In this document: positions 13,709 through 19,493 of the stretch, piece after piece
How positions within the stretch are numbered: position 1 is the stretch's first letter
How the letters are laid out: every line of letters starts with the position of its first letter
Assembly: GCA_965218795.1 (NCBI GenBank)
Contig: OZ244653.1
Coordinates: 1,248,001-1,312,000, forward strand
DNA length: 64,000 bases
Reading direction: 5' to 3'
Origin: a bacterium
Lineage (GTDB): Bacteria; UBA8248; JACPRG01; G963555815
The notes under the pieces: generated by a model
The model's database searches: none
What the model was told of the DNA's origin: nothing
Seen by the model: only the letters and a program-made list of their open reading frames with translations
Program-made: the position numbers and the translations under genes

Positions 13709-14701
13709 CTACGCATCCTTGTACTTTTCGACGATGTGCTTCTTGATGAGATCCAGCTGATCGATCTCATCGGTAATCGGGTTGAGGATAAGGTACTGTG
13801 TTCCCAGCTTGACGTATTCGTCCAGTCGTTCGTGAACATCGTCCAGGGTCCCGAACAGGTACGACTCCATCAAGTGATCCAGGCCCCGGTGCGTCCCCAT
13901 CATGACCTCGAAATGTTTCTTCTGAATTCCGTGACAATGGTCCCGGTCGGCATCATCCACGAGATGAAGAAACTGACTGGCCACGTATTTCATGGTGTCG
14001 GGGTCGCGTCCGTTTTCTTTCAAATACTCCTTCACGATCCGGTAATCATCGACAATGTCTTCCGCGCCGCTTCCGCTGGACCGGACAATCCATGCGTCCG
14101 CGCCCAGAATCCGTTTGAGAACGCCGGGTTGAATCACCGTCGACTCGGGCGCGCCCGGGGCATGACTGGCGGCCCCGCCGGCCACCCAGACTTCAGGCAT
14201 CTTCGGGGGCAACGGATCGAAATCGACATCCTCGAAACTGTAATACTTTCCCTGATACGAGCACCGCCCCTCGGTCAAAAGCTTGCGGGTGGCCTCGAGC
14301 ACCTCGTCCGTCCTGGGTCCGCGCTGGGAGAGCTTGACGCCCGCCACCTCGTATTCCTTGGGATCCCACCCGGCCCCGACGCCGTAGATGTACCGGCCGC
14401 CCGAGAGGAAATCGAGCGAGGCGACCTCCTTGGCCAGCAAGACCGGATGCCGATACGGCAACACCAGAATCGCGGTTCCGAGCTTGATGGTCTTGGTGCA
14501 ACCGGCTACAAAAGCCAGGGTGACCAGAGGGTCCAGCCAGGAAACCGCATAGATCATGGGGGTCTTCAAATAATGGTCGATCACCCAGCAACAATCGAAG
14601 CCCAATTCCTCACAGCGTTGAACGTAGTCACGGAGCTTGGCCGACCTCTCGTGGGTCAGGTTCGGCCAAACGATGGACGGAATTCTGATTCCGAATTGCA
14701 T
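13709..14701 (-). CDS. LLM-class flavin-dependent oxidoreductase
   Basis: MQFGI start, GFD..WVIDH, IKLGTAILVLPYRHPVLLAK, LDFLSGGR. Confidence 0.9.
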   Translation of the reverse strand: MQFGIRIPSIVWPNLTHERSAKLRDYVQRCEELGFDCCWVIDHYLKTPMIYAVSWLDPLVTLAFVAGCTKTIKLGTAILVLPYRHPVLLAKEVASLDFLSGGRYIYGVGAGWDPKEYEVAGVKLSQRGPRTDEVLEATRKLLTEGRCSYQGKYYSFEDVDFDPLPPKMPEVWVAGGAASHAPGAPESTVIQPGVLKRILGADAWIVRSSGSGAEDIVDDYRIVKEYLKENGRDPDTMKYVASQFLHLVDDADRDHCHGIQKKHFEVMMGTHRGLDHLMESYLFGTLDDVHERLDEYVKLGTQYLILNPITDEIDQLDLIKKHIVEKYKDA

Positions 14702-14819
14702 GTTCCATACTCCCCATCGTTGTGAACCAATTCGAAAAGGTGGACGGATTTCAAGATTGCTCAAACACGCGAGCAAAATGTGAAGGCCCGTCCGATTGAA
14801 ACCTCCGGTCCGAGGATGG

Positions 14820-15164
14820 TCAACCGGGGGGCCAGTGAAAGGTACGACCTCCCAGCAAATGAAGATGGAGATGGAAAACGGTCTGGCCGGCCGCCTCATT
14901 GCAGTTGAACAACACTCGGAACCCATCAGTCAGGGTCCGTTCCCTGGCAATCTCAACCGCTTTCAAATGAAGGTGGCCCACGAGGTCTGCCTCATCGGGC
15001 TCCAGATCCAGCAGGGTCGGGATGTGCTTCTTGGGAATGATCAGGACGTGTGTCGGGGCTTGGGGATTGATGTCCTCGATGGCAATGCAACGTTCGTCTT
15101 CATGGACGCGGGTTGACGGGATCGACCCTTCGATAATCTTACAGAACAGACAATCTTCCGCCAT
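14820..15164 (-). CDS. Histidine triad nucleotide-binding protein (HinT)
   Basis: DCLFCKI, GQTVFHLHLHLLGG..WPPG. Confidence 0.95.
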   Translation of the reverse strand: MAEDCLFCKIIEGSIPSTRVHEDERCIAIEDINPQAPTHVLIIPKKHIPTLLDLEPDEADLVGHLHLKAVEIARERTLTDGFRVLFNCNEAAGQTVFHLHLHLLGGRTFHWPPG

Positions 15165-15293: not shown

Positions 15294-15716
15294 TTAGAAG
15301 TTGAAATCCTCCGCGGCGTAATCTTCGAAGTTGGAAACCGGCGGATACTTCTTAATCTCGACGGTGTTCCCATCGGGATCATAAAAGTACGTCGCAAACC
15401 CGACCCCTTTGGCGCCTTCATTATTTTCCTGCATCATGACCCGGATATCATTCTCTTTCAGCCGGTCCAAGAGGGCGTCATAATCGGCCGACTCGATGCA
15501 GAAGGCCAAGTGATGGACGCCCGAGCGGGGGTGTCTTGGCTTTTCCTCATATTGATCGGGTCCGTGGAAGATCACGAGCAACCCATCGCCGATTCGAAAA
15601 ACGGCCTGTGTCTCCCTCCTGCTGACTTCCTCGAAACCCATGACGTTTCGATAAAACCGGACGGCTCGATCCAGGTCCGGGCTGGCCAGGCTGACGTGGT
15701 CGAAACTGACGGTCAT
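15294..15716 (-). CDS. VOC/glyoxalase family protein
   Basis: FDHVSL..DLDRAVRFY, HHLAF, YFYDPDGNTVEI. Confidence 0.88.
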   Translation of the reverse strand: MTVSFDHVSLASPDLDRAVRFYRNVMGFEEVSRRETQAVFRIGDGLLVIFHGPDQYEEKPRHPRSGVHHLAFCIESADYDALLDRLKENDIRVMMQENNEGAKGVGFATYFYDPDGNTVEIKKYPPVSNFEDYAAEDFNF

Positions 15717-15813
15717 CGGAATCCTCCCGATCATTTCCTGCGAATCCGCAACCCTTGGGACTTCACCTGACTCAAAACCCAAACGGGTTCAAAAACCTCA
15801 ACTCGGCACTCCA

Positions 15814-15829
15814 GGGGACGACCGTCCCC
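15814..15829 (-). promoter_or_regulatory. Candidate bacterial SECIS element for the C-terminal Sec of the Uxx-star protein
   Basis: GGGGAC-GGUC-GUCCCC hairpin starting 11 nt after the UGA at 15841-15843. Confidence 0.7.
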
Positions 15830-15831
15830 GC

Positions 15832-16059
15832 TCAGACGCCTCAGTAGCCCCCATCGTGTCCGATGGTCACTTCGCCCCCGTCGACGACTACGGGCACGTG
15901 GCGTTTCCCCCCCGAGAATTTCAACATCCGATCAAGGGCTTCCTGATGCTGCTGGACGTCGAAATATTGGACACCCCTGGAGGATTCTTCATAAGCCTCA
16001 CGGGCCGCTTGGGTGAATCCTCACCCGGCCTTTCCGAAAATCAGAACATCATCCGCCAT
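15832..16059 (-). CDS. Uxx-star family glutaredoxin-like selenoprotein (75 aa, two Sec residues)
   Basis: Manual translation: MADDVLIFGKAG-U-GFTQAAREAYEESSRGVQYFDVQQHQEALDRMLKFSGGKRHVPVVVDGGEVTIGHDGGY-U-GV*. UGA at 16021-16023 and 15841-15843; Grx-like VP and G motifs; purine-rich SD upstream. Absent from the ORF track. Confidence 0.85.
15993..16010 (-). promoter_or_regulatory. Candidate SECIS element for the N-terminal Sec of the Uxx-star protein
   Basis: AAGCGGCC-CGUGA-GGCUU short hairpin starting ~10 nt after the UGA at 16021-16023. Confidence 0.5.
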
Positions 16060-16161
16060 CGGCTCTTTCCCCCTATCGAATTTTCAAGGCAGCCAGGTTT
16101 CCTTGACCGACGCACCCGGCGGGTTTGGGCAGTCGGCCAGGCCGCTTCACCGAACCATCGA

Positions 16162-16304
16162 TCACATCTCAACGACCCCCTTCATCGCCCCTCCCTCTTG
16201 TGGCAGGCCCGCACCCGGCACAGGACTTCCCCCGGACGCGCCTCGGGCGTCTCGACATCCTGTAAGCGAATCTGATTTGGAGTCTCGCAAACGGCTGCCG
16301 GCAT
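16162..16304 (-). pseudogene. Internally deleted zinc-binding (MDR) dehydrogenase remnant
   Basis: MPAAVCETPNQIRLQDVETPEARPGEVLCRVRAC (MDR-like N-terminus) is followed out of frame by GAMKGVVEM* (MDR-like C-terminus). Confidence 0.55.
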
Positions 16305-16360
16305 ACGAAATTCACCTTTCTCGGCTTTCCCCGCCCGGCTGCGATTTGATACATTAAATC

Positions 16361-17531
16361 TAGTGTTTCGTCTCAAGAATAAGTAGGCAAAAGTCATGTT
16401 TGTGCATAGGTTTCCTGATCACCCCTTTTTCAAGGAGGAACCTATGCCACGGGGACGCCCGCTGAAAGCTTTGGAGTTGAGCGATGATGCTCGACAGCAA
16501 TTGGAGTCTATGGCCCATTCCCGCAGCCTACCCCATGGGCTGGTGCGCCGTGCCCAGATTGTCTTGTTGGCCGCCGATGGCAAGCCCAATCGTGCGGTTG
16601 GCGAGGCGCTTGGCGTGAATCGTGCCACCGTGGGAAAATGGCGCCAGCGGTATCTCGACCGCGGCCTGATCGGCCTGTATGACGAATTGCGGCCTGGAGC
16701 GCCGCGATCGATTGAGGATGAGCAAGTGGCCGAGGTCGTATACAAGACACTCAAAGAGCGTCCCAACGAGGCGACCCAGTGGACGGTGCGTTCCATGGCG
16801 CAGGCGACGGGTGTATCCAAAGATACGGTGCATCGCATCTGGCGTGCCTTCGGGTTGCAGCCCCATCGACAAGCGCACTTCAAACTCTCCACGGATCCCT
16901 TCTTCGTGGAGAAAGTACGCGACATCGTGGGGTTATACCTGAATCCGCCCGAGCATGCCATGGTGCTGTGCGTGGACGAGAAGAGCCAGGTCCAGGCTCT
17001 GGAACGCACGCAGCCGTTGCTGCCCTTGGGCTTGGGCTATGTGGAAGGGGTCACCCACGACTACAGGCGCCATGGCACAACGACTCTGTTTGCCGCGCTG
17101 GACATCCAGACCGGAGAAGTCATGGCGCAGTGTAAGCCCCGCCATCGTCATCAGGAATTTCTTCAGTTTCTACGCCACATCGAGGAGCAGGTGCCGCCGG
17201 ATTTGGACATTCATTTGGTGATCGACAACTACGCCACCCACAAGCACGCCAAAATCAAGCAATGGTTGGCAAGACACCCACGGTTTCAACTCCACTTCAC
17301 GCCGACGTATGCTTCCTGGCTCAACCAAGTGGAAATCTGGTTTCACATCATCACGCAACGTGCGATTCGACGGGGCTCCTTCAACAAAGTGAAAGAACTG
17401 ATCCGCCGGATTGACCGATTCACCGACCACTGGAACGAAAACGCCCAGCCGTTTGTGTGGACGGCCACGGCCGATTCCATCCTTGCAAAGATCAAACGCC
17501 TTTGTGAAAAAATTTCTGCGACAGTACACTA
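16361..17531 (+). mobile_element. IS630-family insertion sequence, apparently complete
   Basis: Imperfect terminal IRs TAGTGTTTCGTCTCAAGAAT / TAGTGTACTGTCGCAGAAAT (revcomp); CTAG at both ends (16360-63 and 17529-32), consistent with a TA duplication. Confidence 0.9.
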
Positions 17532-17532
17532 G
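16444..17532 (+). CDS. IS630 transposase
   Basis: AAGGAGG SD, HTH N-terminus, DDE motifs CVDEK / IDNYATHK / [14 protein letters not shown]. Confidence 0.96.
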
Positions 17533-17718
17533 CATACCGATAAATGGACCCACAAACCGGGGCGATACAGCCCACCGAAACTTGATTCACCTGCGGGTCT
17601 ACGCGCCCGGTCCCAACAGGCTTTGCAAGATGCGCCTTGCGGCAAATTGCGGAACTTCCGCGGGTTCGGTAAGATTTGTACACACGAACCCGCAGTCGAA
17701 CGCCAAGGAGGACGAACT

Positions 17719-18222
17719 TTGAAGGAACATTGCGCGGACTTAGTCATCCAGGGTCTGAAAGAAGCCGATATCAGCGTGGTCTGTGCCCTACCCGAGTCCC
17801 ACTTGAAACAGGTCTATGAGAAGGCCTCCCAGGACCCCGAGCTTCGATATATTCCCGTCACGAACGAAGGGGAAGGCGCTTCCATTGCGGCGGGCGTCTG
17901 GCTCACCGGGAATAAGGCGTGCATGATCATGGAGAATTCCGGCCTCCGCATGGCAACGGAGTCGCTAGCCCGCCTGGGACTCACCCACGGTATCCCCGTC
18001 GTCTTGCTCATGAGTTACCGGGGGGATATGGGCGAGCCCAACTGGTGGGGGATCCCTCACGGGATCACCATGGGACCCCTGCTGGACGCCCTTCGAATTC
18101 CCTACACCGTCGTCCGAAAGGAAGAGGAGATCGTGAAGGCCATCCAGAAGGCGCGGATCTCCGCCGACACATCCAAATACCACACCGCCGTGGTTTTCAG
18201 CGGGGAGGTGATCGAGAATTGA
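17719..18222 (+). CDS. ThDP-dependent decarboxylase alpha subunit (sulfopyruvate decarboxylase ComD-like)
   Basis: TTG start after AAGGAGG; PVTNEGEG..IAAG, MENSG, SYRG. Confidence 0.82.
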   Translation: MKEHCADLVIQGLKEADISVVCALPESHLKQVYEKASQDPELRYIPVTNEGEGASIAAGVWLTGNKACMIMENSGLRMATESLARLGLTHGIPVVLLMSYRGDMGEPNWWGIPHGITMGPLLDALRIPYTVVRKEEEIVKAIQKARISADTSKYHTAVVFSGEVIEN

Positions 18223-18824
18223 CGCGCTACCAGGCCTTACAGGTGATTGCCCAAAGGATGACGGATGAAGTCTGCATTGTGTCGCTGGGCGGGATCGTGG
18301 ATGAATGGCACAGCATTCGGCCCGAGCCACAAGGCAACAGCATGTACCTCATGTGTCTGGGTTGCCACATGCCCTTGGCCTTCGGCGTGGCGCTGGGTCT
18401 TCCCAACCGGAATGTGGTCTGTCTGGAGACCGACGGAAGCGCCCTCATGAACCTGGGGATTCTCGCCACCCTCGGCAACGAGACGCCTGAGAACCTCAAG
18501 ATCTTCTGCTTTGACAACGAAATCTATGAGTGCATCGGCGGGCCGCCTACCCATACCTCGGGGAAGGTCGACCTGGCCCGGATGGCCCGCGGCGCCGGCA
18601 TCGAAGAAGCCCGGCTCGTTCGGACGGAAGGCGAGCTCCGCGAGGCGGCCGACGAGGCCCTCTCCGACAAGAGGCTTCACTTTGTCGTGGCCAAGATTGA
18701 ACCGGGCGTGGAAGAAGGTCTCCCCCGGAAAAAATTTGACGGGATCGAAGACAAGTACTACTTCGTCCGGCACCTGGAGGATTCAGAAGGGATTACCATC
18801 ATCCCGCCGAGCCAGCACAACTGA
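18219..18824 (+). CDS. ThDP-dependent decarboxylase beta subunit (ComE-like)
   Basis: TTGA overlap with the alpha subunit; TDGSALMNLG...DNEIYECIGG ThDP-binding motif. Confidence 0.82.
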   Translation: MTRYQALQVIAQRMTDEVCIVSLGGIVDEWHSIRPEPQGNSMYLMCLGCHMPLAFGVALGLPNRNVVCLETDGSALMNLGILATLGNETPENLKIFCFDNEIYECIGGPPTHTSGKVDLARMARGAGIEEARLVRTEGELREAADEALSDKRLHFVVAKIEPGVEEGLPRKKFDGIEDKYYFVRHLEDSEGITIIPPSQHN

Positions 18825-18983: not shown

Positions 18984-19493
18984 ATGCCCAGAGCATCTTC
19001 AAACATCCTGGACTCGGGAGACACATTCCCAAGTCTGACCTTCAATTTGACGGATGGAGGGACGCTGAACGTTCCCGGGGACCAGGGGGACAACTGGAAG
19101 GTCGTCCTGTTGTTCCGCGGCTATTTCTGACCGTATTGCAAGGCGCAGTTGAGCGCCTTCGCCAGGGCTTCCGACAAGCTGACCGAGGAGGGGATCAGCG
19201 TCGTGGCCGCTTCGACCGACACGCTGGAGAATTCCCATAAAATGGCGAGCGAGTGGGAGCTGAATTTCCCCCTCGGGCATAGTCTCGACCCGGTGGACAC
19301 TTCCGGGGCATTGGGGGCCTTTCACGGAAAGCACCCCAGGGATCCGGAAACAGAGATTATTCACGGCACGGGCTATGTCCTCCGACCGGATAACACCGTC
19401 GCTGTGGGCGTCTACAGCACCGGGCCCATCGGCCGTCTGACATGGCAAGAGGTGCTGGCGTTAGTCCAGTTCTACAAGAAGATGAATCGATAA
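18984..19493 (+). CDS. AhpC/TSA (peroxiredoxin-like redoxin) selenoprotein with UxxC motif, 169 aa
   Basis: ATG 18984 after GAGGAGAAGG; MPRASSNILDSGDTFPSLTFNLTDGGTLNVP...WKVVLLFRGYF-U-PYCKAQL. The TGA at 19128-19130 is in frame with ORF 19149..19493. Confidence 0.9.
19140..19159 (+). promoter_or_regulatory. Candidate SECIS element of the redoxin gene
   Basis: AAGGCGC-AGUUGA-GCGCCUU 7-bp hairpin starting 9 nt after the UGA. Confidence 0.75.

Follow-up and report, generated by a model that had tools for sequence, protein, structure and literature searches.

Results

A minus-strand frame with three TGA codons

The window, by which we mean the whole 64,000-nucleotide stretch of bacterial DNA analysed here, carries on its minus strand a short frame holding three TGA codons, and the question it raises is whether this frame is a gene and, if so, how each of the three UGA codons is read. 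Standard ORF calling gave no gene at 15835-16059. When the minus strand was translated with TGA read as U, the frame was MADDVLIFGKAG-TGA-GFTQAAREAYEESSRGVQYFDVQQHQEALDRMLKFSGGKRHVPVVVDGGEVTIGHDGGY-TGA-GV-TGA, which is exactly the peptide with two internal UGA codons and a UGA stop that an earlier, sequence-only reading of this DNA had claimed; from end to end the protein runs MADDVLIFGKAG-U-GFT...GGY-U-GV and is followed by the UGA stop. We assign a probability of about 85% to the reading favoured by the comparisons described below, namely that this is a gene for a 75-residue selenoprotein with a glutaredoxin fold, that the protein is a member of the family NF041114, and that the three codons are decoded as Sec13, Sec73 and a stop at codon 76. 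The features of the putative gene are as follows.

15835-16059, minus strand: predicted glutaredoxin-fold CDS of 75 codons with Sec13 and Sec73 (sequence, translation with TGA=U, NF041114 and Pfam scores, AF2, Foldseek)
16063-16073, minus strand: Shine-Dalgarno-like purine-rich stretch GGGGGAAAGAG, 3 nt 5' of the ATG (read from the sequence)
16059-16057, minus strand: start ATG (read from the sequence)
16021-16023, minus strand: UGA codon 13, predicted Sec at the glutaredoxin active-site position, U-G-F-T (Cys or TGA in relatives)
15841-15843, minus strand: UGA codon 73, predicted Sec three residues from the C-terminus (TGA in relatives, Cys in some)
15832-15834, minus strand: UGA codon 76, predicted true stop, after GGC GTC (TGA, TAG or TAA in relatives; the NF041114 profile ends at residue 75)

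The ATG is the earliest start codon after an in-frame TGA that lies nine codons upstream. Two antisense ORFs, 15856-16275 (+) and 16013-16357 (+), gave no match in a Pfam scan. Public contigs from four runs in three studies (X1, X4, X5 and X6) span the interval 15700-16200. Over this interval the X1, X4 and X5 contigs are identical to the window, although the window may itself derive from X1 and X4, and X6 differs at two letters, of which one was located, 15936 G>A, which would result in L42F. In view of this agreement the TGA codons are unlikely to be assembly errors. No RNA run was listed as covering 15300-16400.

Family membership and predicted fold

When C was put in place of U, the protein scored 99 bits with the NCBIfam equivalog profile NF041114, 'UXX-star selenoprotein family 1', whose curated cut-off is 72, and the match covered profile positions 1-70 of 70; the 'Uxx-star' family that the sequence-only reading had named exists as this profile. 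The parent model, NF041212 (Uxx-star family glutaredoxin-like (seleno)proteins), gave 83.2 bits against a cut-off of 66. The Sec or Cys followed by x-x-T that marks the active site of NF041114 proteins is present as U13-G-F-T, and the 'UXX-star' ending of Sec, exactly two residues and a stop is present as U73-G-V-stop. Given that the family is already curated in NCBIfam and appears in a 2026 review, the gene is not new in kind.

That the protein is glutaredoxin-like, as had been claimed, was borne out by the score of Pfam Glutaredoxin (PF00462, 36.1 bits) and by structure prediction. The AF2 model, built from a 32-sequence alignment (mean pLDDT 86.2, pTM 0.71), has the topology b1 (4-9), a1 (14-25), b2 (29-34), a2 (39-49), b3 (57-60) and b4 (63-66), and places the tail confidently, with beta-bridges at 68, 71 and 73-74. 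The top Foldseek matches of the model were all glutaredoxins (3ic4, TMq 0.74; 3zij, 0.77; 7c10, 0.76), and in the alignment with solved glutaredoxins position 13 is Cys. Among solved chains 7c10 is the nearest in sequence (E 6.7e-11), and since that alignment stops at profile position 65 of 71, the Sec-bearing tail is without a solved counterpart. The chain 7c10 is cGrx1 (Clostridium/Alkaliphilus oremlandii), which resembles the window protein in its glutaredoxin fold and in having Sec or Cys at the first active-site position, but differs from it in having a CPHC-type dithiol motif (in the solved chain) and a C-terminal helix, and in lacking a Sec-containing tail. Classification as a classical dithiol glutaredoxin (CPYC) was rejected: residue 16, at +3, is Thr and not Cys, the C-terminal helix after the GG motif is missing, the AF2 model being without a helix past b4, and TIGR02181 gave only 25.6 bits against a cut-off of 90. 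NrdH-redoxin was rejected as well (TIGR02194, 16.2 bits; cut-off 85.75).

Relatives and the residues at the three TGA positions

The family cut-off was passed in two of the 51 species genomes of the phylum, this genome and G006, and no such gene scored above it in the same-genus genome G003 (93% complete); a scan of one genome per species found a single distant relative. The gene of G006 (locus L026) has the same 76-codon layout, with U13, U73, A-V and then TGA. A metagenome scan yielded 80 loci, which together with the window's own locus and L026 made 82 loci examined, and the gene was located by pattern search in 76 of these (it was missed in L069, L073, L084, L091, L092 and L093). The NF041114 cut-off was passed by all 12 loci that were scanned and by the public proteins P0005, P0017 and P0052, whichever residue was at position 13. 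A profile-free search of 1.84 billion representative proteins returned 130 matches at E <= 0.001.

The arrangement of a TGA, two codons and a stop was repeated in 72 of the 76 loci. The exceptions were three loci cut by the contig end and one, L051, in which an A-run is one base shorter than in its relative L097, so that the stop is out of frame. Each of the 74 loci that extend as far as position 73 has TGA there, whereas position 13 toggled between Cys (55 loci) and TGA (21 loci), a ratio that is biased because one of the two metagenome search patterns demanded Cys13. Homologues with Cys at both positions 13 and 73, for which the earlier reading had proposed a search, do occur among the 130 matches, where P0017, P0052 and P0074 end in C-x-x. 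Judged from the score above a curated selenoprotein cut-off and from a three-codon layout that recurs in so many loci, the frame is more than a chance one.

The third position of this layout behaved differently from the other two. The stop was TGA in 34 of the 72 loci, TAG in 27 and TAA in 11; with TAG or TAA in 38 of them, the comparison argues that the third UGA, UGA76, is a genuine stop at the orthologous position. TGA is also the commonest stop in the window, where it ends 36 of the 55 ORFs of at least 250 aa.

The window protein shares with other NF041114 members the glutaredoxin fold, the [U/C]xxT motif, a size of roughly 70-75 residues and a Sec as the third residue from the end. It differs from them in its neighbours, in having Gly-Phe after residue 13 (U-G-F-T, a motif that reads [UC]P[YF]T in 75 of the 76 loci), and in a tail that reads GGY-U-GV rather than GGT-U-GV, the commonest form among relatives; its identity to every relative found is at most 60%. 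In a relative from an NC10 genome, L048:4013-4255 (+), the active site is CPYC, there is an insertion before the tail, and the tail, GGT-U-SVK-stop, has three residues after Sec and not two.

The public predictions record these proteins in several ways. P0006, P0007, P0009-P0011, P0013, P0018, P0021, P0027, P0028 and P0045 have W at both Sec positions, from which it is evident that their contigs were called with a TGA=Trp code, and some of them also put W at the TGA stop. Other public relatives, e.g. P0002-P0004, end at the C-terminal TGA (...GGT).

Selenocysteine machinery of the genome

The genome, a single contig of 5.17 Mb, was searched for the machinery of selenocysteine insertion, as the sequence-only reading had advised, and selA, selB, selD and tRNA-Sec were all found, each above its family cut-off. 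The selB (386.7 bits) and selA (565.8 bits) genes lie side by side. The match to tRNA-Sec scored 72.1 bits, and ARAGORN called its anticodon as tca. The selD gene is as follows.

G000:C1:5147448-5148413, minus strand: selD, locus L010 (319.1 bits, one in-frame TGA)

In view of this in-frame TGA, the selenophosphate synthetase is probably also a selenoprotein. A second match to the tRNA-Sec model, L017 at G000:C1:3484108-3484199 (+), scored 48.9 bits against a gathering score of 47; it lies amid several other tRNA-like matches and is probably an ordinary long-arm tRNA.

A second candidate selenoprotein gene was noticed about 3 kb away, at 18984-19493 (+). It would encode a 169-residue AhpC/TSA peroxiredoxin-like protein, and its codon 49 is a TGA within a U-P-Y-C motif. 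With the TGA translated, the frame gave 54.2 bits with Pfam AhpC-TSA, and the part after the TGA alone gave 21.7 bits; a 7-bp hairpin, AAGGCGC...GCGCCUU, was seen by eye 10 nt past the TGA.

A hairpin behind the stop codon, mostly 10-12 nt from UGA73

The sequence-only reading had also claimed a hairpin at a distance of 11 nt from the second UGA and of 2 nt from the third, and its coordinates agree with those distances.

15814-15829, minus strand: SECIS-like hairpin 2, GGGGAC-GGUC-GUCCCC, in the 3' UTR, 11 nt after UGA73 and 2 nt after the stop (sequence and tail comparison)

We examined whether the relatives carry a similar element by searching 60 distinct 60-nt tails for a perfect hairpin of at least 5 bp that starts 8-17 nt after the UGA. 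Such a hairpin was present in 55 of the 60; in 200 rounds with the bases behind the stop shuffled, 18.4 tails on average and never more than 28 had one. It started 10 nt after UGA73 in 13 tails, 11 nt after it in 20 and 12 nt after it in 14 (together 47 of 55). The loops are short and G/U-rich (GGUC in 14, GGC in 10, GUC in 4), and the 55 hairpins have 35 different 5' stem strings. The hairpin of L026, CGGGGC-GGUC-GUCCCG, has the same spacing as that of the window gene and a compensatory change: the two stems differ by a swap of G-C to C-G and a change of A-U to G-U, and the GGUC loop is kept. None of the 55 hairpins is followed by a U-tract, and we conclude that they are not transcription terminators. 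The proposal that spacing from a hairpin determines whether a UGA of this gene means Sec (the first two) or stop (the third) is consistent with these results, the hairpin lying mostly 11 nt after the C-terminal Sec codon and the stop being TAG or TAA in more than half of the loci.

Several standard approaches gave negative results. RNAalifold predicted no pairs on a MAFFT alignment of the 55 tails; the hairpins shift register, so that a sequence aligner cannot align them, and the register-free search described above was used for this reason. Single-sequence folding of short SECIS windows did not differ significantly from that of shuffled sequences (z = -0.99, 0.03 and -0.19), and an Rfam scan of 15600-16300 at E up to 10 detected no SECIS family, only a chance match to a snoRNA. 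In a subset of 11 tails with the same geometry 98.7% of the cells were paired, a value that follows from choosing these tails for having a hairpin, and seven of seven pairs were changed on both sides.

The SECIS of E. coli fdhF has a GGUC loop and a bulged U in a hairpin about 11 nt after the UGA. The elements proposed here are like it in that the hairpin lies at or near the UGA, the U of which is separated from the apical G-U by about 22-24 nt, and in the GGUC loop of hairpin 2; unlike it, hairpin 2 has a simple 6-bp stem that lacks the bulged U, and there is no Rfam model for comparison. In four Sec13 loci (L106, L107, L112 and L126) a 543-residue GAF-PAS-LuxR ORF starts at the selenoprotein stop codon, which means that the 3' SECIS hairpin would sit within the coding sequence of the next gene.

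A separate hairpin after UGA13

The first UGA has a structure of its own, which was absent from the earlier reading. It is a three-tiered hairpin with a minimum free energy (MFE) of -15.0 kcal/mol when 48 nt are folded from UGA13.

15980-16022, minus strand: SECIS-like hairpin 1, 43 nt, three tiers (MFE fold and Sec13/Cys13 comparison)
16022-16015 with 15987-15980, minus strand: lower stem of hairpin 1, followed by a 2-bp middle stem (MFE fold)
16006-16003 with 15997-15994, minus strand: apex stem of hairpin 1, GGCC with GGCU (MFE fold)
16002-15998, minus strand: loop of hairpin 1, CGUGA (MFE fold)

The relatives allowed this element to be compared between 15 distinct Sec13 sequences and 46 distinct Cys13 sequences. 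In the 4-bp apex helix 93.3% of the cells were paired in the Sec13 set, compared with 40.8% in the Cys13 set. Covariation in the apex was 0.51 among the Sec13 sequences (shuffle mean 0.21; 0 of 500 shuffles as high) and 0.137 among the Cys13 sequences (shuffle mean 0.092; 14 of 500 as high). The Arg20 codon, which lies in the loop, was CGU in 13 of 15 Sec13 sequences but in only 9 of 46 Cys13 sequences, and the apex helix appeared in the MFE fold of 9 of 15 and 0 of 46, respectively. Judged by these comparisons the apex hairpin after UGA13 is specific to Sec13 forms, the contrast being partly confounded by the amino acids encoded at the 3' half of the stem (E-A versus D-D or D-H) and by relatedness within the sets. 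The apex stem has only 4 bp, one of which is a G-U pair in the window gene. For each Sec codon a SECIS-like hairpin at a suitable distance was recognised by hairpin spacing and by the Sec13/Cys13 comparison.

Genomic surroundings

The genes around the putative selenoprotein gene include the following.

16396-17532, plus strand: IS630-type transposase (DDE_3 and HTH domains), directly upstream and divergent
Probably 15294-15716, minus strand: VOC/glyoxalase-family gene, downstream, with weak Fos-like similarity (59 bits against a cut-off of 180)
14820-15164, minus strand: HIT-family gene, downstream
13709-14926, minus strand: F420-type LLM oxidoreductase (TIGR03619, 170.7 bits against a cut-off of 166.9)
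Downstream, minus strand: hydantoinase B and A genes, on the same strand as the selenoprotein gene

Given that the gene is absent from the same-genus genome G003 and that a transposase adjoins it, the locus may have been rearranged or acquired. Neither a sigma-70-like promoter nor a terminator was called next to the selenoprotein gene. Farther along, TPP-enzyme N- and C-terminal domains are encoded by overlapping ORFs in different frames, 17623-18222 (+) and 17919-18824 (+), which could be a split or frameshifted gene for a TPP-dependent enzyme or could encode two subunits.

Among the relatives, thyX (flavin-dependent thymidylate synthase) adjoins the gene in 34 loci (L052-L128), downstream on the same strand in 21 and divergent in 13. 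As Cys13 forms account for 33 of these 34 loci and the ThyX proteins share 61.5-100% identity, the association looks like the synteny of one clade; thyX was not found beside the window gene, and we rejected it as a conserved neighbour. The neighbours of Sec13 loci were varied (a PAS/GAF/LuxR regulator, Asp/Glu racemase, SDR, CoaBC, Macro domain, glutamate dehydrogenase). Since the neighbours vary so widely, the context gives no clue to function.

Discussion

Decoding of the three UGA codons

The comparisons described above suggest the following scheme as the most likely one. UGA13 would be read as Sec by means of the hairpin of about 43 nt that starts at the UGA and has CGUGA as its apical loop, and UGA73 would be read as Sec by means of the 6-bp, GGUC-loop hairpin that begins 11 nt downstream and lies wholly in the 3' UTR, so that a separate SelB-binding hairpin would stand at the usual distance from each Sec codon. 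UGA76, which is only 2 nt from hairpin 2, would be beyond the reach of SelB and would be left to release factor 2 for termination.

One could envisage that Sec is inserted at the third UGA too, at least in part, which would make the protein 19 residues longer and end it at the next UGA. The frame past UGA76 is indeed open for 19 more codons, and nearly half of the relatives (34 of 72) have TGA as their stop. However, the remaining 38 have TAG or TAA at the orthologous position, the peptides encoded downstream of the stop are not conserved, hairpin 2 lies 2 nt away where it lies 10-12 nt from a Sec codon, and TGA is simply the commonest stop of the window; we regard a third Sec as highly improbable. 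Hardly more credence is due to the view that the locus is a decayed glutaredoxin pseudogene and its in-frame TGA codons plain stops, a view to which the failure of standard ORF calling to find a gene lends some support. Against decay, which we consider very unlikely, stand the match of the TGA codons to precisely those two sites that hold Cys or TGA in relatives, the recurrence of the layout (72 of the 76 loci), the structured RNA behind each Sec codon, an otherwise intact frame with a score over a curated cut-off, and the full Sec machinery of the genome. As for an alternative genetic code in which TGA means Trp or Gly and none of the three codons is Sec, it could be invoked from the W that some public predictions show at both positions (e.g. 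P0006 and P0009). The simplest explanation of these W readings is that they are gene-caller artefacts on short contigs; TGA closes the majority of the long ORFs in the window, the relatives have Cys at both positions and not Trp or Gly, and the chance that such a code operates here is negligible.

Function of the two predicted Sec residues

If the three codons are decoded as Sec13, Sec73 and stop, residue 13 would occupy the nucleophilic position of the glutaredoxin active site, with a Thr at +3 where a resolving Cys is usually found. The Gly-rich eight-residue tail (GGY-U-GV) is predicted to begin where strand beta-4 comes back to the active site, and because b4 runs back toward the active site and the tail starts beside it, Sec73 could reach Sec13. 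Sec73 would then be the partner of Sec13, forming a diselenide (a selenenylsulfide in the Cys13 relatives) in a cycle of thiol/selenol-disulfide exchange. We consider the odds of this redox-pair mechanism, which the sequence-only reading had suggested and whose pairing step is drawn from fold topology, to be about even. A more specific version is that a long-range intramolecular diselenide between two Sec residues 60 positions apart is the redox centre of a minimal 75-residue enzyme, and that the tail residue, which is always Sec in the loci (TGA throughout, against the toggling of Cys and Sec at position 13), is the nucleophile that faces the substrate; this version we consider less likely than not.

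A different function with the same decoding is that both Sec residues are ligands of a soft metal or metalloid (e.g. Hg, As, Cu or an Fe-S-type cluster) in a chaperone or sensor. The replacement of Pro by Gly after the active-site residue permits cluster binding in some glutaredoxins, and the window protein has such a Gly where 75 of the 76 loci have Pro (UGFT versus [UC]P[YF]T). The only remark on function that we found for the family, in the passages on it in the 2026 review (PMC13188914), suggests metal binding or unknown substrates. On the other hand, no metal-resistance or transporter genes adjoin the window gene, and none occur in the 14 commonest neighbour clusters or among the 15 scanned Sec13-locus neighbours. 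We regard a role as metal ligands as unlikely, though less so than any of the departures from Sec-Sec-stop decoding considered above.

Relation to known systems

The passages of the review PMC13188914 that deal with this family list it as 'Distant Grx-like protein 1', with the motif UxxT, two Sec residues and the status 'predicted'; they cite Zhang and Gladyshev 2008 for the family and Haft and Tolstoy 2025 (mSystems) for sister UXX-star families. A 'Grx-like' UxxC family is mentioned in Zhang and Gladyshev 2008 (PMC2398784), and the passages that mention it do not name the UXX-star family. A search of the full-text literature for 'UXX-star' matched only the 2026 review.

The closest analogy for the tail is mammalian thioredoxin reductase (Gly-Cys-Sec-Gly), in which Sec likewise lies in a Gly-rich tail no more than three residues from the C-terminus; the proposed action of Sec73 would resemble that of its mobile Sec tail. 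Unlike the window protein, it is a eukaryotic flavoenzyme and its Cys and Sec are adjacent, whereas the proposed partner of Sec73 is 60 residues away in a protein of 75. The relevant passages of PMC11431864 describe thioredoxin reductase made in E. coli with a SECIS behind the stop codon in untranslated RNA, an arrangement that was engineered there and appears to be natural here, and report that a minimal 17-nt SECIS behind the stop supports Sec insertion at the penultimate codon. In the passages of both PMC13188914 and PMC11431864 that describe it, the bacterial SECIS lies within the coding region.

Implications

Ordinary gene callers would miss or shorten this gene, which bears on the annotation of the family. 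Within a gene of 228 nt a single codon would mean Sec, Sec and stop, the last two UGA codons being 9 nt apart, and the distance to a single hairpin apparently decides between Sec and stop. Hairpin 2 would be a natural bacterial SECIS that lies wholly behind a stop codon, and short natural 3' SECIS elements of this kind could help in the expression of proteins with a C-terminal Sec. If the long-range diselenide is real, selenium supply would set the product: a stop at UGA73 would leave the Cys13 relatives with a tail-less protein, and a stop at UGA13 would leave the organism of the window with no protein at all.
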